NCBI GenBank assembly: GCA_963662715.1
Contig: OY759724.1
Span: 630,001 to 662,000 of the forward strand
Direction: 5' to 3'
Origin: Candidatus Omnitrophota bacterium
GTDB lineage: Bacteria; Omnitrophota; Gorgyraeia; Zapsychrales; JANLHA01
Length of the DNA stretch: 32,000 nucleotides
Positions 332 through 26,718 of the stretch are shown here, in pieces. The position numbers and the translations under genes are program-made. A model generated the notes under the pieces. That model was not told where the DNA came from. It searched no databases and saw only the letters and a list, made by a program, of their open reading frames with translations. Every line of letters starts with the position of its first letter. The stretch's first letter is position 1.

Positions 332-1288
332 CTATGCTGTTTCCCTGTTGTTCCTGACCCAGTTCAAAACCCGTTCAGCCACATGATCCGCATCCAACCG
401 GTAATGACGATGAATGCTGTCCCTGCTGCTGGGTATTGTGCAATGGCTGTCCGGGCAGGCCAGTCTTTTCATCGGGACACCGCATCCCGCATCTGCCCTT
501 ATTTCAGCTAAAGCTGTTCCCAGCCCGCCGATCAAAGAATTTTCTTCCAGGGTCACGATCCTTTCGGCCCGCAACATCATATCAATCAAATCCGGTTCAT
601 TCAACGGTTTCACTTTGAAAACGTCGATAACCCTGACCGAAAGCCCTTCCCGGGCTAAAGATTCAGCCGCTTTAAGCGCTGTATGCACCATAAATCCGGT
701 CGAAAAGATAACGACATCCTGCCCCTCACGGACTTCGGACCAGCCTTTCTGAAGGTCATGGTTCCGGTCGTCGTAAAGCAGCGGCAGCTTCCCTTTTTCT
801 AACCGGATATACACCGGCCCGGGATGGTTGTACGCCCAGCGGACACTCGCCTCTGTTAAAACAGAATCCGTGGGATTAATGATTGTCATCCCGGGGAGCG
901 TCCGCATGACGGCGATATCATGCAGGGCATGATGGGTCGGCCCGTCGCCCCCGTACATAACGCCGGCACCTATGCCTATAATTGTCACCGGAAGGTTCAT
1001 CCCGGATAAATCCACTTTGATCTGTTCGTAACATCTTAGGGTGACAAAAGGCACAATACTGTAAATAAAAACATTCTTTCCGCCCAAGGCTAAACCGGCC
1101 GCCACACTCACCATATTCTGTTCGGCCACGCCGACATTGATATACTGCTCCGGAAGATTCTGTTTAAACCGTTCCAGACTAAAAGCGCCCATATCCGCGG
1201 TCATAAAAATAACATTCCTGTCCACCCGGGCCATCCGGAACAATTCGTCAAAGAAAGCGTCCCGGGTGTCTACGTCGGATATTTTCAT
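332..1288 (-). CDS. Transketolase-family ThDP enzyme, C-terminal subunit (pyrimidine-binding plus C-terminal domain)
   Basis: The sequence FMTADMGAFSLERF...YINVGVAEQNMVSVAAGLALGGKNVFIYSIVPF...DGPTHHALHDIAVMR is typical of the Pyr domain of split transketolases. The track ORF begins at a GTG (1306) that overlaps the upstream gene. The ATG at 1288 (MKISDVDTRDAFF) lies 4 nt after the upstream stop and is preferred. Confidence 0.85.
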   Translation of the reverse strand: MKISDVDTRDAFFDELFRMARVDRNVIFMTADMGAFSLERFKQNLPEQYINVGVAEQNMVSVAAGLALGGKNVFIYSIVPFVTLRCYEQIKVDLSGMNLPVTIIGIGAGVMYGGDGPTHHALHDIAVMRTLPGMTIINPTDSVLTEASVRWAYNHPGPVYIRLEKGKLPLLYDDRNHDLQKGWSEVREGQDVVIFSTGFMVHTALKAAESLAREGLSVRVIDVFKVKPLNEPDLIDMMLRAERIVTLEENSLIGGLGTALAEIRADAGCGVPMKRLACPDSHCTIPSSRDSIHRHYRLDADHVAERVLNWVRNNRETA

Positions 1289-1292
1289 ACAT

Positions 1293-2138
1293 TCAGTTCC
1301 GTTCACAATTCAGCAGCTCCTCAAGCTCGGTTCTGGCCTGCTCCACCTGCGCTTCTTTCGGGACCCCGTGGTGCCACTCCAGCCGGCTTTCCATAAAAGA
1401 AACACCTTTTCCTTTGACCGTATGGGCCACGATCATTAACGGTTTCCGGGAAGAACGCTGACGCACATCTCCCAAAACAGACAAAAGCTGACAGAAATCA
1501 TGTCCGTCCGCCTCCCGGACCTCCCAGCCGAAAGCGGACCACTTTTCCGCCAGCGGTTCCATCGCCGCACAGTCTTCCAGTCTGTCTGTCACACACATTT
1601 TATTATGATCAACGACAGCGATCAGATGGCTGAGATGATGTTGGGCGGCAAACATGGCCGACTCCCATACCGCCCCCTCGCAGCACTCGCCGTCTCCCAA
1701 TAAAACAAAAGTCAAAAATCCTGCCCCGTCCATCCTGGCGCTTAACGCCAGCCCGGCCCCGATCCCCAATCCGTGCCCCAGAGAACCGGTATCCGCCTCT
1801 ATCCCGGGGATGGATCTGTCAGGATGGCCTCCTAATATACAGTCCGGCTGCTGGTAACGCGACAGCTCCTCTTCCGGGAAAAAACCGCAATCCGCCAAGA
1901 TGGCATACAACGCTTCACACGAATGACCTTTACTGAGGATGAAACGGTCCCGGTCCGGCCAGGCAGGCTTTTGCGGATCAAACTTAAGGATCCCGCCGTA
2001 ATAAAGAGCCACGAGAATGTCCGTGCAGGAAAAAGAGCCGCCGATATGGCCTTTTCTGGCACGGGCTATCATCTCAAGCGTCTTGATGCGGATATTCTGG
2101 GCTTTGCGGAATAGGGGATGATTGGTCTTCTCTGTCAT
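1293..2138 (-). CDS. Transketolase-family ThDP enzyme, N-terminal (diphosphate-binding) subunit
   Basis: It has GHIGGSFSCTDIL, the SKGH motif, and the ThDP fold motif GDGECCEGAVWESAMFAAQHHLSHLIAVVDHN (GDG-X-N). At 281 aa it has the typical size of the N-terminal half of a split transketolase. Confidence 0.85.
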   Translation of the reverse strand: MTEKTNHPLFRKAQNIRIKTLEMIARARKGHIGGSFSCTDILVALYYGGILKFDPQKPAWPDRDRFILSKGHSCEALYAILADCGFFPEEELSRYQQPDCILGGHPDRSIPGIEADTGSLGHGLGIGAGLALSARMDGAGFLTFVLLGDGECCEGAVWESAMFAAQHHLSHLIAVVDHNKMCVTDRLEDCAAMEPLAEKWSAFGWEVREADGHDFCQLLSVLGDVRQRSSRKPLMIVAHTVKGKGVSFMESRLEWHHGVPKEAQVEQARTELEELLNCERN

Positions 2139-3656
2139 TCAATGAGCTCTTCTAAAAAAGGAAATCCGGACGTTTTTAATGACCCGCTGAACCACTCCTT
2201 CCAATTTTGTTGTGGTTCTCCCCTGGAAAGCATTGCGGACCATCTGCAGTATTCGCCGGGGATGGGTCAGAAGCATTAAAGCATAAAAATGACTTAAAAG
2301 CAAAAATCTCAAACTGCTGAGGGTCCGCGGGCCGAAGCGTTCAGACCAGGAGACCGCTTTACTCAAGTCGGCATACCCGAACAAGTTTAAAAAGTAATCG
2401 TCGGAAAGCGTCAGTTTCTTTTGCCGTAAGAAAGAGTCAAAAAGCTCTGATCCCGGATAAGGGATAAAAGGGAAAACATTGACTTCCTGCAACCCTTTCA
2501 CGGCTAAACGGGTCAACAGCCGATATGTTTTTAAGAAATCCTTCCACCCTTCCTCGGGCAGGCCGATGACGATATTCGTACTAAGATTCATGCCCACAGC
2601 CAATCCGTCTTCGATCAGCCGGAATATCTTCTGCGGGTCGTTCTTCTTCTTGACGCTTTTCAGGACGTTGAGCGACCCGGACTCGATCGCGAAATCCAAA
2701 TCCCGGCACCCGGCCTGATGCATCAGCCGCAGGACATCATAATCCACGGCCTCTGTCCTTAATGTCGGCAGCTGCCACGTCACATTGATTTTACGCTCTA
2801 TCAACTCCTCACACAAGCTTATTATGTTATCTTTTCTCATCACCGCCGTCAAATCCGAAAAGACAAAATTATCCGCCCCGTATTCACGGATATACGTCTC
2901 CATTTCATCAACCACGTCTTTGGCTTCCCGGGGGATCCAGGGCCGGCCCCACATATTCTTGTTTGAACAAAAGGTACATTGATAGGGGCACCCGCGGGTG
3001 GCCAGGATAGGGATTGTACGTCCGCGCCGGATATGATAGTTATAGCCGCGCGACAGATAGTGGTCCAGCGGAAGCAGGTCCCAGGCCGGCCAGGGGATGG
3101 CTCCGATATCCCTGATTCTCGGAGCCCGGGGAGTGCGCATATATCCCTCCTGTTCCGGTTTCCGGATCATCAAACTCGGCACGTCGGCAAAGTCTGCCTG
3201 CTGATCTATCGCATCCAGAAGCCGCACAATAACATCCTCTCCTTCCCCCAGGACGCAGATATCCAGTTCCGGGCAATCGTTCAAGCTGTATTCCGGCAAA
3301 GCTGTTATGTGTTCCCCCCCGGCGAAAAAAACGCTCCCCGGGAATAACCGGCGGACATGCTGAATCAAATCACGGTGAAAAGGCCAGTCCTGGGAAAACA
3401 TGCACGTAAAGCCGAAAACTTTTGAAGGGGAAAGACGGTCCTTCAGGCCCGCGAAGCTCATGCCGTATTGTATAAATCTGCCGTGGACAATCTCCGTACG
3501 GCTGATGTCTTCCCCGCACATATCGACAATATCCACGTCATGCCCCGCGGCCCGCAAAGCAGCCCCGACATAGGCGATACCGAGGTAGGGGACTAACTGG
3601 GCGCCCATAAAACCCCTGCTGCTGTAAGCAGGAGGACGGATAAGAGTCACTTTCAT
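2139..3656 (-). CDS. Radical SAM enzyme with an N-terminal B12-binding-type domain (class B rSAM, methyltransferase-like)
   Basis: The N terminus MKVTLIRPP...LGIAYVGAALRAAGHDVDIVD has the Rossmann-like pattern of a B12-binding domain. The CxxxCxxC cluster is ATRGCPYQCTFCS at aa 223-230. The gene abuts the downstream gene with no gap. Confidence 0.8.
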   Translation of the reverse strand: MKVTLIRPPAYSSRGFMGAQLVPYLGIAYVGAALRAAGHDVDIVDMCGEDISRTEIVHGRFIQYGMSFAGLKDRLSPSKVFGFTCMFSQDWPFHRDLIQHVRRLFPGSVFFAGGEHITALPEYSLNDCPELDICVLGEGEDVIVRLLDAIDQQADFADVPSLMIRKPEQEGYMRTPRAPRIRDIGAIPWPAWDLLPLDHYLSRGYNYHIRRGRTIPILATRGCPYQCTFCSNKNMWGRPWIPREAKDVVDEMETYIREYGADNFVFSDLTAVMRKDNIISLCEELIERKINVTWQLPTLRTEAVDYDVLRLMHQAGCRDLDFAIESGSLNVLKSVKKKNDPQKIFRLIEDGLAVGMNLSTNIVIGLPEEGWKDFLKTYRLLTRLAVKGLQEVNVFPFIPYPGSELFDSFLRQKKLTLSDDYFLNLFGYADLSKAVSWSERFGPRTLSSLRFLLLSHFYALMLLTHPRRILQMVRNAFQGRTTTKLEGVVQRVIKNVRISFFRRAH

Positions 3657-3663
3657 GATGAGC

Positions 3664-4704
3664 TTATACTTTCAAATCTTCCGTACTGCAACAACTAGAT
3701 CCTCTGTTTTTTCTATAGATCGGATGGCCCCACATCTGGTGGATCAGATTTTTAAGGCCGTTGTCTTTGACATTTCCGAATGTATGCGGGAAGGCCACAC
3801 AAAGCTGAATATCTCCGTAAGGGGAAATATTCAGTATGCGCCCGCTTAACGCCTGGCAGACCTTTGTCTTTCCTTTTACGGAATAGGCGCCCTCAATAAA
3901 GGCAAAAGACGGGTCCATATGTTCGATCACAAATTTTTTTTCCTGTTCCGACAACTCGATTTCTTTCTTTTTAACCCATTCTCCGGCGATGATCGGGAAA
4001 AGGATCCGGATCCCGGTAGCTTTCAGTGCCTTGGCCAAAGAGATGATCGCACTAAGCGGGCTGTCGTCATGCAAAGCGGCAAAATTTTTTATTCTGCGGC
4101 GGGTCGCATAGGTTGAAGCAATGCACGGGATCCCTTCTTCATGACACATGCGGATGCCCTCAATCGCTTTCAGATACACGCCCGGCAACCCGCGGAGGCG
4201 GTCATGCTCTTCTTCGTCCACACTGTCCAAGCTCACATTAATACAGCTGATCCCCGCCTGTTTCAAATCCAGAATCATCTGGCGGTTGAGCATCCAGGCG
4301 TTTGTGGTCAAAGAGATATACAAACCCAGTTCTTCTCCGTAACGCACCAACTCAACAATATCTTTCCGCAGAAGAGGTTCTCCTCCGAAATAATCGACCT
4401 TAGGGATACCCATAGCCACGGCCTGATCGAGAATGTGTTTAATCTCTTCTGTTTTTAACTCCCTGTGCAGATCCGCGTCACTGAAATAATTGGAAACCGA
4501 ACAGTGCTTGCACCGGCAATTACAGCGGTATGTCACGGAAAGTTCAATAAGCCAGGGGACCTTTTTCCTGAAAATATTCGTCAATACCCAGTACCGGGCC
4601 ATGATATAAGCTTTCTTCGGTGTCATGCGGCTTAAGCCGACCCGGGCATAAAGGCGTATCATCCCCAGAAAACGTTTAAAATTTCTTCCATAACTGCTCA
4701 TCAT
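3664..4704 (-). CDS. Radical SAM enzyme with a C-terminal twitch/SPASM-like Cys motif
   Basis: It has the SVTYRCNCRCKHCS cluster, a GGEPLL SAM-binding motif, and the C-terminal CQALSGRILNISPYGDIQLC, which fits CX13GX4C. A strong SD (AAGGAG) lies 3-6 nt before the ATGATG start. Confidence 0.8.
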   Translation of the reverse strand: MMSSYGRNFKRFLGMIRLYARVGLSRMTPKKAYIMARYWVLTNIFRKKVPWLIELSVTYRCNCRCKHCSVSNYFSDADLHRELKTEEIKHILDQAVAMGIPKVDYFGGEPLLRKDIVELVRYGEELGLYISLTTNAWMLNRQMILDLKQAGISCINVSLDSVDEEEHDRLRGLPGVYLKAIEGIRMCHEEGIPCIASTYATRRRIKNFAALHDDSPLSAIISLAKALKATGIRILFPIIAGEWVKKKEIELSEQEKKFVIEHMDPSFAFIEGAYSVKGKTKVCQALSGRILNISPYGDIQLCVAFPHTFGNVKDNGLKNLIHQMWGHPIYRKNRGSSCCSTEDLKV

Positions 4705-4861
4705 TTACTCCTTCTTCTGTGACCGATATTGAACTCGGATATTAAAATAAAGAGGCACCCCTCCAGAGAAACGGGCTGAGGGTTTGACGGATATTTCTTC
4801 CATCATATATAATCTCATATAAAATACAACCTTTATAGCGAAAAAGTAACTTAAAACAGGC

Positions 4862-4898
4862 AAGAAAAACCGGCAGCCCCTTTCCATGAAGTGGCTGC
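4862..4898 (-). terminator. Weak terminator-like hairpin just after the stop of the 4905-5942 gene
   Basis: On the minus strand, GCAGCC (4873-4878) pairs with GGCTGC (4893-4898) around a 14-nt loop. It is followed by CGG TTTTT CTTG. The stem is only 6 bp and the loop is large, so at best this is a partial terminator or attenuator. Confidence 0.3.
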
Positions 4899-4904
4899 GG
4901 CGCA

Positions 4905-5942
4905 TCATTTCAACTTTTTCTTAAAACGTTCAAGGACAATCCGGGTCGCATTATAAATGGATCCGACTCTTAAGCCGAATATCAAGTTCAGATCATTGCA
5001 GCAGACATTCTGACATGCCTGGCAGGGGTTCCGGCTCAAATGCTCCCAGCTCTTCTTAAATCCCACCTCCAAAAAATTACAGGGCTTATATTTATTGACA
5101 AGCACAACACACGGATAAACATCCCCGTTCGCCTCTATATGACAGCCGAAACGTTTAATATAACACGGAAAAGGCCGGTATCCTTCCGGCAACCGGTCCC
5201 AGATGATCTGCTGTTTGCTTTCCAAAGGCCAGCGCAGGTAATGACTGTATGACTCTTTGGAAAAAAAGACCGGCTCCCCTTTTTCTTTTAAAGCAATGAT
5301 TTTCTTCACAAGGCTTTTCAACTCATCATCCGGGATGCTGACGGATTTATCCGGGGAATCCTCTTCCCTTAACAGGCTGAACTGCACACGCGTCCCGAAC
5401 CTCCCGGCCAGCGATAAAAGCTCTTCAATGGATTCCGTATTGTTTTTGGTTAAAACCGTATGCAGGTGGAATTTGATGTTCTCTCTTTTAAGACATTCCA
5501 ACCCCTGCATAATCCGCTGATAAGTCCCCTGCCCCCTGTTCAGATCGTTCCTCTCTCCGATGCCGTCCAGGCTCACGGCAATGGAATCAATTTTTCTCAA
5601 AACCGGGATACGGGACGGGATCAAAAGGCCGTTTGTGCTGAGATGACACAGCAAGCCTTTGGATTTGATTTTATCAACGATCTCCGCGATATCCGTCCGT
5701 AAAAGAGCTTCTCCGCCGTTAAGGGAAATATACTTTGTGCCTAACCGGTGAAGTTCATCAATCAGCTCAAAAATTCTTTCTTTGGGTATCTCCTGGGTGT
5801 TCCGGTCGTAATATTCGGCATAACAATAAACACAGCGGATATTACAGCGGTTTGTGACGCACAGCGTGACAAAGATAGGGACTCTTCGACGCAAGAACCG
5901 CGCTTTGCCGATAGCCCACAAATAAGCGACATATTTTTTCAT
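4905..5942 (-). CDS. Radical SAM enzyme with a full SPASM-type C-terminal domain
   Basis: It has the CVTNRCNIRCVYCY cluster and NGGEALL. The C terminus carries CYIKRFGCHIEANGDVYPC (CX12GX4C) followed by CQACQNVCC. Its N-terminal region is paralogous to 3664-4704: ...RRRVPIFVTLCVTNRC against ...RKKVPWLIELSVTYRC. Confidence 0.8.
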   Translation of the reverse strand: MKKYVAYLWAIGKARFLRRRVPIFVTLCVTNRCNIRCVYCYAEYYDRNTQEIPKERIFELIDELHRLGTKYISLNGGEALLRTDIAEIVDKIKSKGLLCHLSTNGLLIPSRIPVLRKIDSIAVSLDGIGERNDLNRGQGTYQRIMQGLECLKRENIKFHLHTVLTKNNTESIEELLSLAGRFGTRVQFSLLREEDSPDKSVSIPDDELKSLVKKIIALKEKGEPVFFSKESYSHYLRWPLESKQQIIWDRLPEGYRPFPCYIKRFGCHIEANGDVYPCVVLVNKYKPCNFLEVGFKKSWEHLSRNPCQACQNVCCNDLNLIFGLRVGSIYNATRIVLERFKKKLK

Positions 5943-5955
5943 AACGGTGCAACCA

Positions 5956-7422
5956 TCATTGTTTTAAACGGCATTTCAGCATGCCGAAAAATTTTCCTAT
6001 CATATCCCCGTTCACCACGCCATCCGGGGACACCCATTCTTTTATGAGTGTCGGCCAGTGGTAACGGATAAAACCGAGGTACAATTCTTTTTGCCAGCGC
6101 GCCAAATCGTCCGGGGTGAAATCCGGGGTTCTTAAAAGCGATGAAAACAGCTCAACCCGGTTTTCATCCTCGGCCGAAGATTCGACCAGCCAGCCTTTCT
6201 CTTTGCATTCATCATAAAGTTCGGTTTTGGGATAAGGCGTAAATATCCCGACCGTAATAAGGCTCAAAGGCAGACGCGCCATAAGAGCTTTGCTTTCTTC
6301 AAAATCAGCGCGCGTTTCCCCCGGGGCCCCAACCAGGAAATAACCGATCGTCGGGATCCCGGCGTCACGGAACCAGTGAAAAACCTGTTCGATTTTTTCC
6401 ATGCTCAGCCCCTTGCGGTACACCTGGTTTCGGATGCGCTCACTGCCGGACTCAATCGCCAGGCACACGCTGGTGCACCCGGAGGCTTTCATCAGACGCA
6501 CCAATTCTTCATCGATACTTTTTATGCTGAGGCCGTTATGAAAATTATATTTCACCGGCCATTTCTGATCGATAATGCCCTGGCAGACGGCTTTGGCCCT
6601 TTTTAAATCCAGGCTGAAATTATCATCAATAAAATAAAAATGATAAACGTCAAAACGCTCCATCAGATATTTCAATTCGCTTAACACGTTCTGCGCCGAG
6701 CGCGGCCGCCATCTCCGGCCGTGGGTCAGGTACATATTACAAAAACGGCACCGGTTCGGGCAACTGCGGGAGGACAAGACCGGCAGACAGGGTGTCGGCA
6801 ATTCAAATATGCGTCTCTGGTATTTAAAGTACTCTTTCAGGTCTGCAAGATGCCAGGCCGGGAAAGGGATATCATCCAGTCTTTCATTATAAGCCTGCTT
6901 TTCTATGATGATATTCCGCTGATCCTGCCGGAAGGCGATCCCGTCGACCCGCCGGCAGGATTCCGTTAAACTTAACCCGGAGGCAAGACCGTCAATGACA
7001 TGGAGAAACGTAAGTTCGGCTTCCCCCAGGATAATGATATCAACCGCCTGGCATTGTTCAAGACAGTATTCCCATTCACTGGTGGGAAACAATCCCCCGA
7101 CAGCGACCGGAACTTCCGGCCGGGCCTGTTTGACCTGAGAGGCAATCCGGGCCACAAACCGCCAGCGCGCCGTAAAAGAACAGGTGATCCCCACAAAATC
7201 ATAGTCCTCATGTTTTAAAAAATCTTCCACATCCGCGTCCCCGAGGCCGTAACGGTAGACCCGGCCGCTTGAACGGACCGGCCCTAAAGACGCGTCATAA
7301 ACTTTGACCGTATGCCCCCCTTTTTCCAGCATGGCCGCCAGATAAAATAACGCCATGGACGGGGCCCGGGAATCAAATTCATTGCTGTGGGTATACTGGG
7401 GATAGATCAGCAGAATTTTCAA
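5956..7422 (-). CDS. Radical SAM enzyme with an N-terminal B12-binding-type domain (second class B rSAM)
   Basis: It has (M)KILLIYPQ...FYLAAMLEKGGHTVKVYD and the cluster SSRSCPNRCRFCN. The start codon is TTG at 7420-7422, preceded by a perfect AGGAGG (7430-7435) at 7-nt spacing. The next in-frame Met would delete the conserved first beta-strand. Confidence 0.8.
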   Translation of the reverse strand: MKILLIYPQYTHSNEFDSRAPSMALFYLAAMLEKGGHTVKVYDASLGPVRSSGRVYRYGLGDADVEDFLKHEDYDFVGITCSFTARWRFVARIASQVKQARPEVPVAVGGLFPTSEWEYCLEQCQAVDIIILGEAELTFLHVIDGLASGLSLTESCRRVDGIAFRQDQRNIIIEKQAYNERLDDIPFPAWHLADLKEYFKYQRRIFELPTPCLPVLSSRSCPNRCRFCNMYLTHGRRWRPRSAQNVLSELKYLMERFDVYHFYFIDDNFSLDLKRAKAVCQGIIDQKWPVKYNFHNGLSIKSIDEELVRLMKASGCTSVCLAIESGSERIRNQVYRKGLSMEKIEQVFHWFRDAGIPTIGYFLVGAPGETRADFEESKALMARLPLSLITVGIFTPYPKTELYDECKEKGWLVESSAEDENRVELFSSLLRTPDFTPDDLARWQKELYLGFIRYHWPTLIKEWVSPDGVVNGDMIGKFFGMLKCRLKQ

Positions 7423-8291: not shown

Positions 8292-8300
8292 ATCGTCTCC

Positions 8301-18640: not shown

Positions 18641-18644
18641 AAAT

Positions 18645-19178
18645 TTAAGACTTTTTAATGCAACGTTCTATCATTCCGGCCAGGACTTCGGCTAAAAGGA
18701 AAAAACTCGGTTTTTGCGCAATCCGGTATTTCTCGTCGTTTAAAACAATACTTCTGGCGTGAAGTAACCGCGCGATCCGGCGTTTAAGGATGATCTTGCT
18801 ATTATAGTTCTTATATAAATGCTCCAAGCTGATGCCGGCAGGGTGATATCTGTAAATCTCCCGGATCAACCTTAAACGGATGGAGGATTCATAGGGGCCG
18901 AAGACGCATAAAATGTAAAGGAAACTCAGCAAGCCGTAAACAGCCCAGGCGACCAAAAGGTAGCCGACATCATCCATGCTGACCCGGCTCAGAATGATAT
19001 CCCGTCCCTCCCGAATAAATAAACCAACCGGGACCAGACTTACGAGAAAAAAAATACGCATCGTCCATTTAAGAACGCCGCCTTCGCCGACAAAACGGAA
19101 GGAGATAAAATGGATCAGGATAAAAATCACAAAACTGACAGCCGCTGTCATGAGAGTTGTCAGGTCCGCACTCATCAT
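18645..19178 (-). CDS. Small membrane protein with 3 N-terminal TM helices and a ~85-aa soluble, winged-helix-like tail; paralogue of 19179-19685
   Basis: The TM segments are LMTAAVSFVIFILIHFISF, MRIFFLVSLVPVGLFI and VGYLLVAWAVYGLLSFLYILCVFG. They are followed by PYESSIRLRLIREIY...GISLEHL...RRIARLL. The ATG directly abuts the upstream TAA. Confidence 0.7.
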   Translation of the reverse strand: MMSADLTTLMTAAVSFVIFILIHFISFRFVGEGGVLKWTMRIFFLVSLVPVGLFIREGRDIILSRVSMDDVGYLLVAWAVYGLLSFLYILCVFGPYESSIRLRLIREIYRYHPAGISLEHLYKNYNSKIILKRRIARLLHARSIVLNDEKYRIAQKPSFFLLAEVLAGMIERCIKKS

Positions 19179-19685
19179 TTATCCGCCCCATCCCCGGCCG
19201 CTCAATTTCTGGTAGAGTTCAAGCCACTGCGCGACACGCACTCCCGGGGCCGTTAACCAGATAAGGCCTCCCTCCTCACGGATATATTCCGTCAAGAACA
19301 AGTCGTCCAGCCTCGGGCGGATGAGCCTGTCATTATCGATGACCGCGGTTATTTCTTCAAACGTCATCCCGTCCTTTTCTTTAAGAGACATCATCAGCAG
19401 GCGGGACGGGCTTTCAACCTTGGTTCCGAAATAAAAAATGAGATAAACCGGAACAAGCAAAACATATAGGAGCAGAGCACATCCCCACAAAGGCGTTGAC
19501 CAGAAACTCTTTCCGTCCGGACCGGCTTCAACCTGAATGAACAAAAGCAGGAACAACAGCCCGCCGGCAGCAATCGCAAAGAATGATCTGATATGCAGCC
19601 GGTCTTCCTTTTGAAAGCGGCACCATATTAAATGGACAAAGATATCTGTCATAAAAACCAATGACATCGTCACAAGAGAATACAT
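19179..19685 (-). CDS. Small membrane protein with 3 N-terminal TM helices and a ~85-aa soluble tail; paralogue of 18645-19178
   Basis: It has the same architecture as its neighbour. The junction motif FGTKVESPSRLLMMSL...GMTFEEI...RPRLDDLF aligns with FGPYESSIRLRLIREI...GISLEHL...RRIARLL. A GGAG SD sits 7 nt upstream of the ATG. Confidence 0.7.
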   Translation of the reverse strand: MYSLVTMSLVFMTDIFVHLIWCRFQKEDRLHIRSFFAIAAGGLLFLLLFIQVEAGPDGKSFWSTPLWGCALLLYVLLVPVYLIFYFGTKVESPSRLLMMSLKEKDGMTFEEITAVIDNDRLIRPRLDDLFLTEYIREEGGLIWLTAPGVRVAQWLELYQKLSGRGWGG

Positions 19686-19845
19686 TGTTTATCTCCGGTC
19701 ATGAGGGAGTGAAGCAAATCTGTGTCAGGATTTTCGCAAGCAGGTTTTATGGCTCTGTGGTTCATATTCTAAGAGTTTTAACATCCGGACTTTGAGAATG
19801 AGAGGTTCGTCGGGCTCCCGGCCGGAGCCGTCCATCAAGGCCCCC

Positions 19846-20502
19846 TTAAGGAATAAACCAGTAATAGTCCCCGGAATACCCGGCTTCAGCAAAGAATTTT
19901 CTCCACTCATCAACATGCATATACGTCAGGGCCGTAAGATTCCACATATCCATGCGTTTTCTCTCTTCCTCGTTGCGGTAAGCATCCACGGTGATAAAGG
20001 CAAACCGGCGGGTCACCCGCTGAATTTCCTGCACAGCCTTCTGACAGGCTTCAGACGGGAGGTTATGAATCGTGTTGATCGATATCACTAAATCGAAAGA
20101 ACGGTCCGCAAACGGCAGCGCCTGAGCACCGCCTTTTTGCAGAAAAGGCTTCACCTCCTGTCGGGCATTCCGCAAGGCATAATCCGATACGTCAATACCC
20201 GCGATCTCGACCCCGGGGATCAGCTGCATGAAATCGTACAGCATAAAACCTTTCCCGCATCCGACATCGAGAATCCGGCTGCCGGCTTTCAGGCCGTAAT
20301 GTTTTTGAAAATCAGGGATAACAGGCTGCCAGAAACGGGGCTGATAGGAATAGCCTCCGTAGCCATACCGGCGGTCACCGTCAAAAAAATCCCTGCCGAA
20401 CCGGCGGGCGACGGCCCGTTCCTCATCTGTCTTGCTCTGCTGCCGTTCTTCAAGATTCCGCGGTGTCTGCGGATACTTCGCTAATAAATTAATCTCTCCC
20501 AT
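19846..20502 (-). CDS. Class I SAM-dependent methyltransferase
   Basis: Motif I is ILDVGCGKGFML, with a downstream acidic loop (IAGIDVSDYAL). The N-terminal region ...RFGRDFFDGDRRYGYGGYSYQPRFW is seen in methyltransferases of polysaccharide loci. The track ORF starts at TTG 20508, and I prefer the ATG at 20502. The start is uncertain because there is no clear SD. Confidence 0.75.
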   Translation of the reverse strand: MGEINLLAKYPQTPRNLEERQQSKTDEERAVARRFGRDFFDGDRRYGYGGYSYQPRFWQPVIPDFQKHYGLKAGSRILDVGCGKGFMLYDFMQLIPGVEIAGIDVSDYALRNARQEVKPFLQKGGAQALPFADRSFDLVISINTIHNLPSEACQKAVQEIQRVTRRFAFITVDAYRNEEERKRMDMWNLTALTYMHVDEWRKFFAEAGYSGDYYWFIP

Positions 20503-20544
20503 AGCCAAAGGGTCAATCTTTCGTTCAGGTTAAAGGGACATAAT

Positions 20545-21270
20545 TTAAAAAATACGGACAGGCCTTTTGTTAAAATGCAAATTATGACTTAATTTGATTT
20601 CCCGTATCAGCTTCAGAAATGTCGCAACAACTTCAAAAAAACTTTTTAATTTCAAAGCGCAGCTCCCCTCCACTCCGGTTTGCATATATCCGGGGATTTC
20701 ATGATACGAACAGCCTGAACGCAAACACTTGATTGTCAACTCAGCGATCACGCTGAACCTTTTCGAATTGAGCTTAAAAGACCGGATTCTTTCGGTGGGA
20801 TAAATACAGGGGCTGTTGATATACTGAACGTACACATTAAACACGCACATATACAGCAGGCCGTATAAAGCCGAAATAACGTTACGGAACCGGCCCCGGT
20901 CCTCCTTATTAATAAAATAAGCAAGAATCAAATCCGCCTTATCACAATTTTCAAAAAGTTTTTTTATCAGTTCCGGCGCCATATCATTATCACCCGGCAC
21001 AATCATGAACTTCCCGTACCTGGCCTGCGCAAGAGCATCCTTGATGCAGATACCCAGCCCGGAATTTTCCGCATGCTGAATGCTTCTGACACAGGAATAT
21101 TCCTTTTCTAATTCCTGAATCACATCTCCCGTACGGTCACGGCTTCCGTCATTAACAATGATAATTTCTATTTCGAGAGGGCCGGTGTCCTGCGCCGACC
21201 GAACAACATTGCTGACCGTTGCCCGAAGCATCTCCTCCTCGTTATAGGCCGGGATGACAACTGATACCAT
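20545..21270 (-). CDS. Family 2 glycosyltransferase (GT-A fold), DPM1/GtrB/ArnC-like polyprenyl-phosphate sugar synthase candidate
   Basis: It has VSVVIPAYNEEEML, IIVNDGSRD and an acidic PGDND motif. At 241 aa it shows no obvious C-terminal TM pair. A GAGGG SD sits 7 nt upstream. The gene overlaps the upstream gene by 29 nt. Confidence 0.75.
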   Translation of the reverse strand: MVSVVIPAYNEEEMLRATVSNVVRSAQDTGPLEIEIIIVNDGSRDRTGDVIQELEKEYSCVRSIQHAENSGLGICIKDALAQARYGKFMIVPGDNDMAPELIKKLFENCDKADLILAYFINKEDRGRFRNVISALYGLLYMCVFNVYVQYINSPCIYPTERIRSFKLNSKRFSVIAELTIKCLRSGCSYHEIPGYMQTGVEGSCALKLKSFFEVVATFLKLIREIKLSHNLHFNKRPVRIF

Positions 21271-23026
21271 CGGATACCCTCATAATGCGTTTAAGCTGTT
21301 CTTCCGGCAGCCTGGGATCAAGGTCTTCCAGGCCACCGCCGAATTTCAACATAGGGACGATTTTCTGATCTTTCACAATGTCGACAACACAGAGCACCGG
21401 TCCGGCTGCGGCCAGGACCTGCTGCAGGCCAGGACCTATCCCGGCATGGTTTTTTATATGCGTATAAGGGAGACGGAATCCCTCAGCGATCAATCTGAAA
21501 TCCGGGAAAAACAGCCCGCTCTCCTGGTCAACGGCTGTATAACGGGAATCAAGCCAGGTATCCATCGTCTGCCGCTGAATCCCGTGCCCCTGATTGAACA
21601 TAATAAAAATCTTCACCGGCAGATCATAGCGACGCACCGTTCCCAGCTCCTCAAGGCTCATCATGATCCCGCCGTCGCCGGTTATACAAACAACCGACCG
21701 GCGGCTTGCACAGGCCGCCCCTACGCTGGCCGGCAAAGCATATCCCATCGGGGTATGGTTCCAGGCAGAAAAAATCTTTTGCCGCGGTTTCACCTGAAAT
21801 GTCTGCATGGTCCAGGCCAGGTTGGCCCCGGTATCGGCAACGACCGAAATATTCTCTTCCAGCCGGGCAGAAAGCTCTTTGATAAAAACCACACCGTCCA
21901 CACGGTCTTCCCTGGCATACCGCTCCGGGGGGCAGACCGGGAACATTTCTTTCCATTCTCCGATTTGCGCCCGCCATTCAGCAAAAGGGTCTTCGGGAGA
22001 TGTCTCCGGAGCAGCCCGGAAGACCGTGTCAAAAAAACACGGCAAAGAAACTTTGATCGCTAAATCTAGTTGAAATTCGTTTTCCGTGAATTTCGTCAAC
22101 TCCTCCGGATCAATATCAACCATAACTTTCCGGGCGCAAGGAGCAAAAAGAGCCGGTTTTCCACCGGTGATCATCTGGCATAACCGTGTTCCCAGCGCAA
22201 TGACCAAATCCGCGTTCTGCACGGCGAAATTGCCGGCCCGGGGACCGCAGACGCCGACCCCGCCCATATTCAATGGATGTTGCGCCGGCAGCAAATCTTT
22301 CCCCCCCCATGTCAAGACAACGGGGACATGAAATGTTTTCAAAAAGCGCTCCGCTTGTGCCTCTGTTTTACTTAAGGACACGCCGGCCCCCATGATAACG
22401 ACAGGCCGGCTGGCGTTTTGAATCAGAGAGATAAATTCCCGGACGGCATCTTGAATATCCGGGGCTTCGCTCAAAGGAGGAACGTACGCCTTTAGCTGAT
22501 CCGGATCAATGTCGGCCCGCTGAATATCATCCGGGATGTCAAGGAGAACCGGCCCCGGACGCCCTTCCCTGGCCATAAAAACGGCTTTTTGCAGTTCATA
22601 CTTTATCTCCCGGGGGTCTCCCACCTGTTTAGCGTATTTCGTAATAGACTGAAAAACAGACACCACATCCGTTTCCTGGAATCCCTTCTGCCGCAGGGCC
22701 CGGCTCCGTTTGATACGAAACGTCGCGACCTGTCCGCAAATAAAAATAACCGGGATAGAATCAAAGAAGGCATTGGACACGCTGGTCACAAGGTTGGTCG
22801 CCCCGGGCCCGCTTGTCACCATCACCGCGCCGAGTCCGCCGGAAACGCGTGCATAGCCGTCTGCGGCGGCCCCGGCGCCCTGCTCGTGCTGCGTACACAT
22901 CACCTGAACATCCGGGTGACGCGCCGCTGAGTCAACCGAATGAATAATAGCCCCCCCGGAGACCAGAAAAACATGTCTTATCCCCTGCCGGGCCAGAAAA
23001 TCAACGAGGTAATCTGACAGTTTCAT
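21242..23026 (-). CDS. ThDP-dependent enzyme of the acetolactate-synthase large-subunit / YerE-like family
   Basis: The Pyr domain reads HVFLVSGGAIIHSVD...CTQHEQGAGAAADGYARVSG..GAVMVTSGPGATNLV, with the catalytic Glu in HEQ. The PP-domain motif is ITGDGGIMMSLEELGTVRRYDLPVKIFIMFNQGHG (GDG-X24-N). It is 594 aa, with an ATGA overlap to the upstream gene. Confidence 0.85.
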   Translation of the reverse strand: MKLSDYLVDFLARQGIRHVFLVSGGAIIHSVDSAARHPDVQVMCTQHEQGAGAAADGYARVSGGLGAVMVTSGPGATNLVTSVSNAFFDSIPVIFICGQVATFRIKRSRALRQKGFQETDVVSVFQSITKYAKQVGDPREIKYELQKAVFMAREGRPGPVLLDIPDDIQRADIDPDQLKAYVPPLSEAPDIQDAVREFISLIQNASRPVVIMGAGVSLSKTEAQAERFLKTFHVPVVLTWGGKDLLPAQHPLNMGGVGVCGPRAGNFAVQNADLVIALGTRLCQMITGGKPALFAPCARKVMVDIDPEELTKFTENEFQLDLAIKVSLPCFFDTVFRAAPETSPEDPFAEWRAQIGEWKEMFPVCPPERYAREDRVDGVVFIKELSARLEENISVVADTGANLAWTMQTFQVKPRQKIFSAWNHTPMGYALPASVGAACASRRSVVCITGDGGIMMSLEELGTVRRYDLPVKIFIMFNQGHGIQRQTMDTWLDSRYTAVDQESGLFFPDFRLIAEGFRLPYTHIKNHAGIGPGLQQVLAAAGPVLCVVDIVKDQKIVPMLKFGGGLEDLDPRLPEEQLKRIMRVSDGISCHPGL

Positions 23027-23718
23027 AGACCCTTCTTATCCTTGATGCCGACGCCCATTCCGAAAATATAATGGGCCATCGGCGCATATCCGGTATGCAG
23101 AATTTCATCATTCATCGAAAACATAAACACGTTCTTAAAATACTTTTCCATAAGGCCGCGGAGAGTTTTCTGGCTCTTCAGGTTAATATGCTGCACTTTA
23201 CTGCGGTAGGTGGCGTACCTGTTGGCGGTGATATTGGGGGTCCCGACAATACAGACGCCGTCTCTGTTTAAACAGCGGACCTGATTCTCCATAAAAACTC
23301 TGTTGAGCTTGGGGTCGAGATGTTCTATCACATCTATGGAGAAGATACCGTCAAATATTTCATCCGGGACGGACCGGCAAATGTCCATGTTCTTAAAGAC
23401 AACATTTTTAATCTTTTTCAGCCTTTGCCGGTTTCCTCTAATCAGCCGGTCAACCGGGTCGATCGCCAGGACAGACTGCGCGTGCTGCGCCACCACCGGC
23501 ACGCCGAAACCGTCCCCGCATCCGACCTCCAGCACTTTGGCTTTTCCGTCGAGCATTTTGGCGCAGAATTTATACCGGGCCAAGACAAACCCCAAATGCT
23601 TGGGGTCGTGCAACAGGCTGTAGGATGACCACGGCCCCAGGTTCAATGATGAAATGAACTGATGGTCCGTTCCTAAACGGAGCGCTTCTTGTTGGGATAT
23701 TTTTTTTCTTTTTTTCAT
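23023..23718 (-). CDS. Class I SAM-dependent methyltransferase
   Basis: Motif I is VLEVGCGDGFGVPV, and FSIDVIEHL is the post-II/III motif typical of Methyltransf_11/23-type enzymes. Confidence 0.8.
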   Translation of the reverse strand: MKKRKKISQQEALRLGTDHQFISSLNLGPWSSYSLLHDPKHLGFVLARYKFCAKMLDGKAKVLEVGCGDGFGVPVVAQHAQSVLAIDPVDRLIRGNRQRLKKIKNVVFKNMDICRSVPDEIFDGIFSIDVIEHLDPKLNRVFMENQVRCLNRDGVCIVGTPNITANRYATYRSKVQHINLKSQKTLRGLMEKYFKNVFMFSMNDEILHTGYAPMAHYIFGMGVGIKDKKGL

Positions 23719-23764: not shown

Positions 23765-24631
23765 TTAATCCATGCTGCCGTGACGCCGGAGCTTATACAT
23801 ATGCGGGTCCTTTTTCAGTTGCCGGATAAGACTGTCAGCCGGCCGGCCTCTCCAGGGGTCGTGGACAACAGAAAAATTCCTTCCCGAGGCAACAGCCTTC
23901 CCCTGACGCACAAGACCATTGATGCAGTCGAATATATCCTGATAGGACGTTCCCTGTTCATGGGTTAAAAACTCTTGCGTCAACCGGTATTTATCAGCAG
24001 AGACATGCGGATCATTAAGAATCAGCTGGTGAATCTTTGTTTTTGTCCACCCCGGTCCCACGATAAAAATATTGAGGTCCTTGTTTTCTTCGTCTAAATA
24101 TTCACACATTTTTATAAGCAAGATCTTGCCAACCGTATAAGCGGAAAAATTCCTGACCGGTTTGTTTACCCCTCCCCCGGCAAAAAAAACAGCATGATGC
24201 TTTTTCCCCTTTTTTCTTAATGGATATAAGAGGTGCAAGACACGCAACTGGGCAAAAGAATTAACGGTCACAGAATCAAGCCAGGCATCAAAATCCGCAT
24301 CAAAAAAAGCCTGTACAGGCCGCGGCTCCCCGACACAGGAAATAAAAATATCCCAAGGAGTTTTTAACGCGGCATACCTGTCATACAAAGTCTGCAGGCT
24401 GCGGCCTTTGGAGATATCACAGCGGATCAGAACACAGCCTTTTTGAGCTTCCAGGGTTTGCAAGGCCCTGGCCTTTGTCCGGTACGTCCCGATAACCCGG
24501 TCGCCGTTCTTCAAGTATTCCCGGGCGAGAAACAGGCCGATATCACTGCTCACGGAAAGGATAAAAACCGTCCTGGGAACTTTCTTTTTTCTCCGTGGCT
24601 GAGCCATACATTCCTTTTCTTCATCCCCCAT
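23765..24631 (-). CDS. SDR-like NAD(P)-binding oxidoreductase with an atypical glycine motif
   Basis: FILSVSSDIGLFLAREY sits in place of TGxxxGIG, and there is a SAYTVGK (YxxxK) catalytic motif. An alternative ATG at 24607 has AAGGAA 3-4 nt upstream. Confidence 0.65.
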   Translation of the reverse strand: MGDEEKECMAQPRRKKKVPRTVFILSVSSDIGLFLAREYLKNGDRVIGTYRTKARALQTLEAQKGCVLIRCDISKGRSLQTLYDRYAALKTPWDIFISCVGEPRPVQAFFDADFDAWLDSVTVNSFAQLRVLHLLYPLRKKGKKHHAVFFAGGGVNKPVRNFSAYTVGKILLIKMCEYLDEENKDLNIFIVGPGWTKTKIHQLILNDPHVSADKYRLTQEFLTHEQGTSYQDIFDCINGLVRQGKAVASGRNFSVVHDPWRGRPADSLIRQLKKDPHMYKLRRHGSMD

Positions 24632-24666: not shown

Positions 24667-25701
24667 CTAGTAAGGACCTAAGAAAGTGTCGGTCGTCAGC
24701 GCGCATTCTTTATTGTAAGGGACGTCCCTGTCCAGTAAATGCAAGACTGTTTCAATAATATTCTGGCAGGAAGGGTAGAACCTGTCTTCCAACGTTTTTG
24801 AAACCGGGCAGGGACTGAAAGCCCACCCGATCCGTTTAACCGGTTTCTTGAGCGAGCCAAAAGCCTGGTCCGCGACAACCGCCGCCACTTCAGCCGAAAA
24901 ACCGCAGCGCAGCCAGTCATTATCAACACATATCAGATGTCCGGTCTTTTTGACGGACTCAATAATCGTCCTTTCGTCCATGGGCTGCAAACTGACCGGG
25001 TCGATGATTTCCAGGTCAATACCGTGCGCCTCTAATATCCCGGCCGCTTTTAAAGCTTCCGGGACCATAAGCGATGTCGCTACGACCGTAACATCTTTTC
25101 CCCGGCGGCAGACATGGGCTTTACCAAAATCAAAGGTGTACATCTCCTCAGAGACAGGACCCACCGTATCATAAAGGGCCCGGGATTCCAGAATAACCAC
25201 CGGCCCGTCTGTCTGCAGGGCCTGCAGTATAAGGCCTTTGGCAAGATACGGCGAACTGGGGACCGCGACATGTAACCCAGGGACGTGCGCGCAAACGGCC
25301 TGAATGTTCTGGGAATGGGTCACCCCCTGCCCCCACCCTTTGCCGACAATGCCACGCACAAGGCAAGGCACCGAAGTCTTGCCCGCGTAAACATATTTCC
25401 ACTTGGCGGCGTTGTTGAGAAGCTGGTCCAGCGCGAGAAACATAAAGTCATTGCGGGCATGCACCATAACAGGTCTTTTTCCATTGACCGCAGCCCCCAA
25501 AGTTATGCCCATAAGGGCTCCTTCGCTCGCAGGCGTGTCAAAAACTCGTTCCGGGCCGAAACGCCGGTAAGCTTCCCTCGTGGTGCCAAAGATCCCCTTA
25601 TAATCATCCACGCCGAGGCCAAAGATGAAGATATCCGGGTCATTGTCCATCGCCTGAACCAAGGCTTCGCTAATCGCATCTTTATAAGACAATGTTCTCA
25701 T
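24667..25701 (-). CDS. 2-oxoacid dehydrogenase E1 component beta-subunit-like (transketolase-like Pyr plus C-terminal domains)
   Basis: MRTLSYKDAISEALVQAMDNDPDIFIFGLGVDD...RVFDTPASEGALMGITLGAA is the canonical E1-beta N terminus. I chose the ATG at 25701 rather than the track start at 25749 because E1-beta proteins begin with this motif. Confidence 0.85.
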   Translation of the reverse strand: MRTLSYKDAISEALVQAMDNDPDIFIFGLGVDDYKGIFGTTREAYRRFGPERVFDTPASEGALMGITLGAAVNGKRPVMVHARNDFMFLALDQLLNNAAKWKYVYAGKTSVPCLVRGIVGKGWGQGVTHSQNIQAVCAHVPGLHVAVPSSPYLAKGLILQALQTDGPVVILESRALYDTVGPVSEEMYTFDFGKAHVCRRGKDVTVVATSLMVPEALKAAGILEAHGIDLEIIDPVSLQPMDERTIIESVKKTGHLICVDNDWLRCGFSAEVAAVVADQAFGSLKKPVKRIGWAFSPCPVSKTLEDRFYPSCQNIIETVLHLLDRDVPYNKECALTTDTFLGPY

Positions 25702-25761
25702 GCGTCTATCTCGTTTCCCAGAAGACCGGAAAATTTGCCCTCCAGGCATTCGGCATTAAAA

Positions 25762-26718
25762 TCAATACACATTTTCCAATAAAGTGTTTCCCTCAGGCCA
25801 GGGGCTCTTCAGGGCTTTCTGATAAGAGGCCTCGGCCTGCCCGCTCCATTCTTTCCGTTTTTCTTCAATTTCGTCTTGCGTCATAATACCCTGCCCCGTG
25901 ATAAACTCCTGCAGCCGCTGAATAGGGCAGCGCTCCATCCAGGACTCCACTTCCTCCTGGCTGCGGTAACCCCGATCATAATCGAATAAAGGGCCGACAT
26001 GTTCGCGTATCCGGTACGTGAGACATTCTAAAAACGCCGGGCCGTCCCCCTGCCGCACCCGCGGGATCAAATCCGAAACGGTTTGATAAAGCCTGACCGC
26101 GTCATTCCCGTCTGTCTGCCGGGACAAGAGTTCCGGGACTCTGATCCTTTCATAAATAGGAGACGGAGGCTGCCGGACACTTAAAGGCGAATGCGTAGAA
26201 TACAAATTGTTTTCACAGACAAAAAGGACCGGCAATTTCTTAAGAACGGCAAAGTTCAGGCTTTCCGAAAAGACGCCTTCTTCAACCGCGGCATCCCCGA
26301 AAAACACAACAGCAATTTTAGGGAGCCTGTCCATGAAGAATGAAAGGGCAGCGCCAACCGCAACCGGAATCATCGCCCCGAGAATCGGGGAAGCAAAAAC
26401 ATGTTTTTCGACACTGGACAAATGCGCTGACCCGGCCCGCCCCCGGCTGGAACCCGTCACCCGGCCGCACAGTTCAGCGAAAAAAGCGTCCAGACAGCCA
26501 CCCCTGGCCAGATAAGCGGCATGGCAGCGGTGAGACACAAAAACCTGGTCCTGCGGTTCGAGAGCCTGGCAGACAGCGGCCGCCACGGCTTCCTGCCCTA
26601 TCGATAGATGCGTCGGCGTCCGCATATTCTGTTCGGCATAAACGCTGACGATTTTTTCTTCCGTCTGCCGGATGCGCAACATCGTCAAAAAAATATTTTT
26701 ATAAGCATCTTCATTCAT
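25762..26718 (-). CDS. ThDP-dependent 2-oxoacid dehydrogenase E1 component alpha-subunit-like
   Basis: It has TPTHLSIGQEAVAAAV and the ThDP motif FFGDAAVEEGVFSESLNFAVLKKLPVLFVCENNLYS (GDA-X-ENN). No E2 or E3 gene is nearby. Confidence 0.85.
   Translation of the reverse strand: MNEDAYKNIFLTMLRIRQTEEKIVSVYAEQNMRTPTHLSIGQEAVAAAVCQALEPQDQVFVSHRCHAAYLARGGCLDAFFAELCGRVTGSSRGRAGSAHLSSVEKHVFASPILGAMIPVAVGAALSFFMDRLPKIAVVFFGDAAVEEGVFSESLNFAVLKKLPVLFVCENNLYSTHSPLSVRQPPSPIYERIRVPELLSRQTDGNDAVRLYQTVSDLIPRVRQGDGPAFLECLTYRIREHVGPLFDYDRGYRSQEEVESWMERCPIQRLQEFITGQGIMTQDEIEEKRKEWSGQAEASYQKALKSPWPEGNTLLENVY

Follow-up and report, generated by a model that had tools for sequence, protein, structure and literature searches.

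Co-inherited thiamine diphosphate enzymes at an Omnitrophota locus that probably builds a branched sugar from heptose

The stretch of DNA analyzed here (the window) is a 32,000-nucleotide segment from a Candidatus Omnitrophota bacterium (assembly GCA_963662715.1, contig OY759724.1, positions 630,001 to 662,000), whose genome is contained in a single contig of 3.36 Mb. We took 28 of its genes, each encoding at least 100 residues, as real, and every one is on the minus strand. Among them are three systems dependent on thiamine diphosphate (ThDP): a split transketolase (TK), an acetolactate synthase (ALS)-like enzyme, and a pair of E1 α and β subunits. The ALS-like enzyme and the E1 pair are encoded in a conserved gene cassette, which is the main subject of this report. 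The rest of the window encodes seven radical S-adenosylmethionine (SAM) proteins (two of the B12 type), two glycosyltransferases (one GT9-like, the other a GT2), a PHP hydrolase, a tetratricopeptide repeat (TPR) protein and three large membrane proteins, as well as an extended short-chain dehydrogenase/reductase (SDR), a second classical SDR and a second methyltransferase. Window genes are all given by their coordinates within the 32,000-nucleotide stretch; related genomes and loci carry G and L numbers, respectively. The features are as follows.

28651-29553, minus strand: radical SAM protein of 300 residues, with which the cassette begins in its Omnitrophota form (Pfam Radical_SAM)
27735-28691, minus strand: GT9-like glycosyltransferase of the heptosyltransferase family (Pfam Glyco_transf_9, partial match, 35.5 bits against a cut-off of 22)
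26746-27738, minus strand: extended SDR Epim_330, a Cj1427-like nucleoside diphosphate (NDP)-sugar C4-dehydrogenase (sequence and fold match to Cj1427)
25762-26718, minus strand: E1 α-like ThDP subunit of 318 residues (Pfam E1_dh, 2e-52)
24667-25749, minus strand: E1 β-like subunit, with an alternative start at 25701 giving 344 residues (Pfam Transket_pyr and Transketolase_C)
23765-24631, minus strand: classical SDR of 288 residues, SDR_288 (Pfam adh_short)
23023-23718, minus strand: class I SAM methyltransferase of 231 residues (Pfam), overlapping the ALS-like gene by 4 nucleotides
21242-23026, minus strand: YerE-like ThDP carboligase of 594 residues (Pfam TPP_enzyme_N, M and C)
20545-21270, minus strand: small GT2, similar to polyprenyl-phosphate sugar transferases (Pfam Glycos_transf_2)
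19846-20508, minus strand: class I SAM methyltransferase of 220 residues, MT_220 (Pfam)
10261-19685, minus strand: export/transfer block (Pfam: weak YfhO match, Radical_SAM/SPASM, TPR)
2139-10215, minus strand: upstream half of the transketolase module (Pfam)
1293-2138, minus strand: split transketolase N (pyrophosphate-binding, PP) subunit, accessory clade I (Pfam Transketolase_N, 5.9e-44)
332-1306, minus strand: split transketolase C (pyrimidine-binding, Pyr) subunit, with an alternative start at 1288 (Pfam Transket_pyr and Transketolase_C)
3-323, minus strand: classical SDR, start only, running off the window (Pfam); it always flanks the accessory transketolase

An initial annotation of this DNA had recognized the three systems from their ThDP motifs and placed them in one operon. 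Pfam searches and a motif check confirmed every element of the systems, with the ThDP motifs of all three intact. The ALS-like enzyme carries HEQ at residues 47-49 and GDG450-X25-N478, so that both motifs stand as first described while the spacing is X25 rather than X24. The E1 α subunit contains GDA141 followed by ENN169-171, and the N subunit of the transketolase contains GDG148 followed by the asparagine. For the E1 β subunit, the start at 25701 is probably the right one, judging from its 344 residues, which match the length of the orthologues, and from PDB alignments that begin at residue 20-23. The single operon is unproven: all three systems are present on the same strand, but the co-directional array has internal gaps of 112-200 bp (4705-4904, 12884-13010, 16255-16366 and 19686-19845), and promoter and terminator scans of the window gave no matches clearly above shuffled expectation.

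The 594-residue ALS-like enzyme is assigned to the YerE-like class of ThDP carboligases, as judged by comparison with JanthE and PpYerE, two carboligases of this class that accept ketones (PMC12188165, PMC12247030). These two proteins are its closest relatives of solved structure. Single-sequence searches of the PDB gave 310 bits to JanthE (8RPH), 289 to PpYerE (5AHK) and 277 to the best acetohydroxyacid synthase (AHAS), and a profile built from 18 orthologues gave 428, 375 and 364 bits, respectively. Sequence identity to JanthE or PpYerE is about 35%. All three share a 6-residue insertion (R..LRQKGFQETD) that is absent from E. coli AHAS I, and the YerE-like character proposed at the outset is thus borne out. 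By sequence, the middle domain is intact: it matches TPP_enzyme_M (2e-31) and aligns without gaps to that of the flavin adenine dinucleotide (FAD)-containing JanthE over residues 203-304, with the FAD-stabilizing Y268 and P293 replaced. Enzymes of this class take C2 to C8 keto acids (PMC12247030). The earlier statement that the product probably carries C2 branches is therefore not supported as worded; C2 is one option.

The host genome encodes three ALS-like enzymes, a split transketolase in two copies and three pairs of E1 subunits. One ALS paralogue elsewhere in the genome adjoins the gene for an AHAS small subunit (ilvN). Against E. coli AHAS I the two paralogues outside the window reach 462 and 604 bits, compared with 222 bits against JanthE, the opposite order to that of the enzyme in the window. 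The second split transketolase adjoins a transaldolase gene (C1:3307628). The window ALS-like protein reaches 389 bits against an NCBIfam AHAS cut-off of 538 and is below every AHAS cut-off; E1 α scores 255 bits to TIGR03182 (cut-off 394), E1 β scores 285 bits to NF006667 (cut-off 321), and the transketolase subunits match NCBIfam transketolase models only as halves. Because AHAS and transketolase paralogues exist elsewhere and the scores fall below the cut-offs, we rejected the housekeeping reading of the three systems, which are specialized. The outcome that would have refuted the initial annotation, with all three clustering with housekeeping orthologues as sole genomic copies, was not observed. 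Two further assignments were also rejected. The transketolase C subunit is not part of a 1-deoxy-D-xylulose-5-phosphate synthase (DXS), as the N subunit scores 269 bits to transketolase and 44 to DXS, and the C subunit 204 and 179. An acetoin or butanediol pathway does not fit, as there is no decarboxylase or E2/E3 component and the sugar context is constant. The probability that one gene of each ThDP family falls by chance within 26.4 kb was estimated at p ∼0.003; synteny in relatives, described below, is the stronger evidence for association. A second true AHAS large subunit is encoded elsewhere in the genome (L012:5835-7538, equivalent to C1:791835-793538; 604 bits to E. coli AHAS I) with no adjacent small subunit. 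It adjoins genes for a B12 radical SAM protein, a TPR protein and an APH-family kinase.

To follow the cassette in other genomes, orthologues of the ALS-like enzyme were sought in 401 Omnitrophota genomes and, with one genome per species, across phyla, and the open reading frames (ORFs) flanking them were matched to the window proteins. Loci of at least 15 kb whose ALS-like gene is at least 40% identical to that of the window were defined as cassette loci (n = 35). Another 15 loci, with an ALS-like gene below 40% identity, served as the contrast set, and genes were counted within 10 kb of the ALS-like gene. The order of the cassette is radical SAM, GT9-like, extended SDR, E1 α, E1 β, SDR, methyltransferase, ALS-like and methyltransferase. 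This order is kept in G205, a genome of the same genus in which synteny covers all of the 45-kb locus, and in G336, G129, G243 and G141. It is also kept in G312 and G242, where the E1 genes are of a paralogous type. The radical SAM gene at 28651-29553 adjoins the GT9-like gene in the first five of these genomes and in G261, and the GT9-like gene is syntenic in relatives at 55-74% identity. In total, cassette synteny extends over at least 6 Omnitrophota families and at least 8 phyla. ALS-like orthologues with 50-61% identity are found in Omnitrophota, Chlamydiota (Simkania and Parachlamydiales), Woesearchaeota, Gottesmanbacteria, Andersenbacteria, Nitrospirales, Neomarinimicrobiota and one gammaproteobacterium, and those with 41-46% identity in Verrucomicrobiota, Thiotrichaceae and cultured Sneathiella. 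The partners of the ALS-like gene were counted as follows.

E1 pair: 26 of 35 cassette loci (at least 8 phyla), 0 of 15 distant loci
SDR_288-like SDR: 27 of 35 cassette loci, 0 of 15 distant loci
220-residue methyltransferase: 27 of 35 cassette loci, 0 of 15 distant loci
Epim_330-like extended SDR (orthologues of at least 40% identity): 22 of 35 cassette loci, 0 of 15 distant loci
231-residue methyltransferase: 15 of 35 cassette loci, 0 of 15 distant loci

The counts for the E1 pair indicate, at the level of gene content, that it is functionally linked to the YerE-like enzyme, with both belonging to a single mobile pathway module. Contrary to the initial annotation, the three systems are not independent, since two of them are inherited together as one cassette. 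Between these two systems lie the methyltransferase and SDR that had been suggested as possible processors of the branch; both are conserved partners adjoining the ALS-like gene across phyla. SDR_288 mostly adjoins the ALS-like gene, and MT_220, which is about 60% identical across phyla, is often found beside the E1 pair. In the ESM Atlas, MT_220 matched generic methyltransferase clusters only. A Zn-dependent alcohol dehydrogenase of the medium-chain dehydrogenase/reductase (MDR) family accompanies the cassette in 22 of the 35 loci, all in other genomes (L030, L031, L033, L034 and others), and is absent from the window.

The E1 pair has no dehydrogenase partners at the locus. No E2, lipoyl or E3 domain was detected by Pfam among the 28 window genes and 10 ORFs in the 18 kb downstream (38 genes), in agreement with the initial annotation, and the whole genome has one weak E2-like match, 1.27 Mb from the locus. 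The best PDB matches of the two subunits reach 120 and 208 bits. In most loci the pair adjoins a Cj1427-like SDR. Two other arrangements of E1 pairs were observed. The third pair of this genome (L015:5849-8223, equivalent to C1:2044849-2047223) is followed by a 145-residue stand-alone lipoyl-domain protein within a NeuB/cytidylyltransferase/PglD-like (nonulosonic acid) cluster, which suggests a carrier-dependent reaction on or for a sialic-acid-like sugar. Elsewhere in this genome (L014:5346-10982, equivalent to C1:1684345-1689981), a recurrent unit of extended SDR, E1 α, E1 β and extended SDR is followed by a B12 radical SAM gene and includes no YerE-like gene; units of this kind adjoin the transketolase module in G069 and G374.

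A source for the keto sugar is suggested by the extended SDR that precedes the E1 pair. Its best PDB sequence match is Cj1427 (6VO6), with 165 bits compared to 104 for the next match and 33% identity. An AlphaFold 2 (AF2) model (mean pLDDT 85.7) retrieved Cj1427 with GDP-D-glycero-D-manno-heptose as the top 6 Foldseek matches, at TM scores of 0.83-0.91. Cj1427 oxidizes C4 of this nucleotide sugar (PMC10680097). In other phyla, the genes next to the cassette include GmhA-like, HldE-like and 4,6-dehydratase-like ones and those for a HAD-phosphatase and a nucleotidyltransferase. An HldE-like gene is present in 22 of the 35 cassette loci and none of the 15 distant loci, and a GmhA-like gene in 16 and 1, respectively. 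Based on the Cj1427-like SDR, the flanking heptose genes, the GT9 gene, and the GmhA- and RfaE-like genes present elsewhere in this genome, the predicted acceptor is most likely a 4-keto sugar derived from an NDP-heptose.

The transketolase lies 19 kb downstream of the cassette, in a separate module rich in radical SAM genes. The order of this module is SDR, SPASM radical SAM, PHP, radical SAM, B12 radical SAM, TK-N, TK-C, SDR, GT2, extended SDR and B12 radical SAM genes. Within the window, the region 2139-10215 encodes an SDR, a SPASM radical SAM protein, a PHP hydrolase, a B12 radical SAM protein, two radical SAM proteins and another B12 radical SAM protein. Downstream of the transketolase SDR, a GT2 and an extended SDR are encoded, then two B12 radical SAM proteins and finally a carbamoyltransferase, which the window locus has in common with G205 and G258. 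The order SDR_276, radical SAM, PHP, rSAM_346, B12rSAM_505 and transketolase is kept in G258, G305, G241, G069 and G365, and the run from TK-N through TK-C, SDR and GT2 to the extended SDR is kept in 7 relatives. The same-genus genome G258 has the transketolase module, and no cassette was found there with the queries used. The two modules are therefore separable, and the transketolase belongs to a module apart from that of the other two systems.

The subunits of this accessory transketolase are 47% (N) and 33% (C) identical to those of the housekeeping copy. Its orthologues, with at least 57% identity, are present in about 10 of the 401 Omnitrophota genomes, almost all of which have a housekeeping copy at 45-51%. 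In the C subunit, the SHAG motif is changed to GIGAG with loss of the phosphate-binding histidine, and another phosphate-binding loop has a 1-residue deletion, while the catalytic GDGPTHH is kept. These altered motifs hint at a non-canonical substrate. A second accessory clade is found directly beside YerE-like genes in L041, L056, L073 and L091. Two loci allow a direct comparison. G141 and G261 have a common remainder of radical SAM, GT9, Cj1427-like SDR, methyltransferase and E1 pair genes, and at the same position L117 (G141:C11:81000-100900) has an SDR and a YerE-like gene, whereas L118 (G261:C44:9000-28900) has an SDR and a split transketolase of clade II. This swap is comparative evidence that the YerE-like enzyme and the split transketolase have analogous, exchangeable roles. 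The full triple of systems is found only in the genus of the window and, with another transketolase clade, in G243 and L091. Its description as unusual thus holds for the literature, but the combination of a YerE-like enzyme with an E1 pair is common in uncultivated lineages.

The block at 10261-19685, between the cassette and the transketolase module, encodes a pair of small membrane proteins along with three large ones that are GT-C-like, a TPR protein and a SPASM radical SAM protein, and is syntenic in G205, G336, G129 and G141. The small GT2 followed by a pair of small membrane proteins and GT-C-like proteins comes after the cassette in many loci. In the window, the two small proteins (168 and 177 residues) are encoded in tandem at 18645-19685, between the small GT2 and the GT-C-like proteins, and have no Pfam match; a flippase-like role is plausible. 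At the other end of the cassette, a 670-residue coiled-coil (SMC-like) protein is encoded upstream at 29988-32000, as it is beside the cassette in the same-genus G205. A GC-rich terminator-like hairpin with a T run is located at 29897-29881, between this gene and the cassette.

We read the window as a composite glycan-tailoring locus of at least two conserved modules, in which successive C–C branching or extension of a 4-keto heptose nucleotide would be followed by reduction, methylation and export, and we put the probability of this reading at about 60%. The cassette itself probably builds an undescribed branched sugar from heptose. The comparisons above show the enzyme classes, their non-housekeeping status, the co-inheritance and the heptose context, whereas we infer the substrates, the order of the steps and the formation of C–C bonds as follows. 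In the cassette module (29553 to 19846), the Cj1427-like dehydrogenase would oxidize a nucleotide sugar at C4, with an NDP-heptose as the most likely substrate. Both the E1 pair and the YerE-like enzyme would decarboxylate an α-keto acid on ThDP, and the acyl anion equivalent formed by each would be added to a carbonyl of the sugar, so that a C-branch or a chain extension results. SDR_288 may then reduce the new ketone, as YerF does, and the two methyltransferases may methylate the product. The GT9-like enzyme could pass the product on, or the small GT2 could load it onto polyprenyl phosphate, for flipping and subsequent transfer outside the membrane by the GT-C-like proteins. In the transketolase module (10215 to beyond the start of the window), a C2 ketol would be added to another sugar intermediate by the accessory split transketolase, which is accompanied there by an SDR, a GT2, an extended SDR and radical SAM enzymes. 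A broader extrapolation, which we offer only tentatively, is that the surfaces of Omnitrophota, Chlamydiota, Woesearchaeota, the candidate phyla radiation (CPR) and Nitrospirales carry undescribed higher-carbon sugars, multiply C-branched or chain-extended and methylated 4-keto-heptose derivatives made by two to three successive ThDP carboligations, with the YerE-like enzyme and the split transketolase as interchangeable branch modules that diversify the glycan.

Several observations weigh against this scheme. The functions of all members of the cassette are predictions. Nine of the 35 cassette loci have no E1 pair within 10 kb. PpYerE ranks above AHAS by a small margin only, and the JanthE residues Y268, P293 and Y297 are not conserved in the window enzyme. 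Genes for a nucleotidyltransferase or for heptose synthesis are absent from the window, with the GmhA-like and RfaE-like genes of this genome 1.2 Mb away, and the scheme gives no defined step to the seven radical SAM genes. Finally, E1 β retains the active-site histidine (THSQ motif) that is used for lipoamide acylation, which leaves room for a dehydrogenase or acyl-transfer role.

The last point is the starting point for a different assignment of the E1 pair, namely oxidative decarboxylation onto a lipoyl or coenzyme A (CoA) carrier encoded elsewhere, supplying the acyl group with which the glycan would be O- or N-acylated, without any C–C bond formation. The third E1 pair beside the lipoyl-domain protein in the NeuB cluster indicates that carrier-dependent E1 chemistry exists in this organism. 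However, neither the 45-kb locus nor the cassettes of other phyla contain a lipoyl, E2, E3 or acyltransferase gene, and the sole E2-like match of the genome is weak and distant; we thus regard such a role as improbable. It is somewhat easier to envisage, though still unlikely, that only one ThDP enzyme acts on the sugar while the E1 pair, the transketolase or both make or trim an α-keto acid or ketol donor for the YerE-like enzyme, much as aldolases make the donors for erwiniose and caryophyllose. The YerE-like enzymes ErwE and MMAR_2332 work with C4 to C8 hydroxy-keto acids that are made for the purpose (PMC9306805, PMC12247030). Among the relatives, a PanB-like ketopantoate hydroxymethyltransferase is encoded directly after the YerE-like gene (L048:11751-12746, in the Nitrospirales/Omnitrophota loci L048 and L058), and TAL/FSA-like aldolases are present in 5 Chlamydiota loci (e.g. 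L032:7928-8662); both are possible makers of tailored keto-acid or ketol donors. In contrast, neither an aldolase nor a PanB-like gene is present in the window. The E1 pair is mostly located beside Cj1427-like or other extended SDRs, including SDR-E1-E1-SDR units without a YerE-like gene (L014, G069 and G374), an arrangement consistent with the pair acting directly on a keto sugar.

The number of radical SAM genes raises the question of whether the product is a glycan at all. The seven genes in the window, with their two B12-type members, are joined by two more of the B12 type downstream, and hopanoid and P-methyltransferase families are among the best NCBIfam matches of the B12 enzymes, none of which reaches the cut-off. 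One could therefore consider a radical-SAM-tailored lipid or a small secondary metabolite whose skeleton is built by the ThDP enzymes and decorated by the glycosyltransferases. This is very improbable, as polyketide synthase (PKS), non-ribosomal peptide synthetase (NRPS), terpene synthase and cyclitol synthase genes are lacking, and sugar-nucleotide enzymes, heptose genes and GT2, GT9 and GT-C proteins dominate the conserved neighborhood in all phyla. Hardly tenable is the notion that a housekeeping AHAS, an E1 of pyruvate dehydrogenase (PDH) or acetoin dehydrogenase and a pentose-phosphate transketolase merely happen to lie near a glycan locus. Only the family-level Pfam and NCBIfam names speak for it. 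Against it stand the scores, all under the curated equivalog cut-offs, the AHAS with ilvN and the transketolase with transaldolase elsewhere in the genome, the patchy spread (close ALS orthologues in 8 of the 401 Omnitrophota genomes), and the tight synteny with sugar genes. We therefore favor the composite glycan-tailoring locus.

As biocatalysts, sugar-branching ThDP enzymes are prized for the chiral tertiary alcohols they give access to; they are also markers of unusual surface sugars. Three known or proposed classes have been described, YerE-like, E1-type (α-KADH2) and split transketolase (PMC12247030, PMC9306805), and a 2025 review puts them in different settings (PMC12247030). The literature keeps the classes apart, with YerE-like enzymes in lipopolysaccharide (LPS), E1 pairs in actinomycete antibiotics, and split transketolases also in actinomycete antibiotics but with a function called unproven; here, all three are found in one locus. 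Full-text literature searches returned no description of a cassette joining a YerE-like enzyme, an E1 pair and a Cj1427-like dehydrogenase, although the in silico survey of Krug et al. (2024) may list clusters with YerE-like and E1 genes. The cassette with the first two is spread over at least 8 phyla, including DPANN archaea and environmental chlamydiae. The exchange of a YerE-like gene for a split transketolase provides a direct comparative argument for the role of the latter, and the presence of the cassette in cultured Sneathiella strains, among them Sneathiella sedimenti and Sneathiella sp. HT1-7, opens the predicted sugar and each enzymatic step to bench study.

Each part of the locus has a counterpart among known systems. 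In many loci, the export genes that come after the cassette (for a small GT2, small membrane proteins in pairs and large GT-C-like proteins) resemble three-component extracytoplasmic glycosylation of the ArnC/ArnEF/ArnT or GtrA/B/C type, although the small membrane proteins match no Pfam family. The split transketolase is comparable to those of miharamycin and amipurimycin biosynthesis, for which a hydroxyacetyl branch is proposed: in both cases a second genomic copy, split into N and C subunits, lies in a sugar-tailoring cluster with an adjacent reductase, and the function is a proposal in both. All 13 predicted sugar-branching transketolases are from Streptomyces and uncharacterized (PMC12247030). 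In contrast, two accessory clades are found here in Omnitrophota and Chlamydiota, one of which substitutes for the YerE-like gene in an otherwise identical cassette, and the C subunit in the window lacks the phosphate-binding histidine motif.

The extended SDR of the cassette is nearest, in sequence and fold, to Cj1427 (MlghA) of the capsular heptose pathway of Campylobacter jejuni, and the cassettes of other phyla have heptose nucleotide genes (GmhA-, HldE- and GmhB-like) at their flanks. In C. jejuni the 4-keto-heptose is epimerized and reduced, whereas here it would serve as the acceptor for a C–C bond, on a GDP or ADP carrier. The E1 pair is, by description, similar to AlmDI/DII (aldgarose), KbDH-α/β (kibdelomycin) and AviB1/B2 (avilamycin), which also stand alone without E2 or E3. 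All of these lie beside NDP-sugar oxidoreductases, and pyruvate is the expected source of the C2 unit that they add to a keto sugar. The pair in the window differs in its setting, a cassette for surface glycans in uncultivated bacteria of the Gram-negative type and in archaea rather than an actinomycete antibiotic cluster, and in being coupled to a YerE-like enzyme.

The YerE-like enzyme itself resembles YerE (with YerF, from the yersiniose A pathway of Yersinia pseudotuberculosis), ErwE, MMAR_2332, PpYerE and JanthE as a three-domain ThDP enzyme of the ALS superfamily with a catalytic glutamate and the GDG...N motif. As in those systems, it has no AHAS small subunit, an adjacent ketoreductase, and a surface-glycan locus with a keto-sugar-forming SDR. 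Its likely acceptor is a heptose-derived 4-keto sugar, rather than the CDP-3,6-dideoxy-4-keto-glucose of YerE. Unlike the known systems, it is co-inherited with an E1 pair and one or two methyltransferases, and enzymes of its type are found in Omnitrophota, Chlamydiota, DPANN archaea and the CPR.

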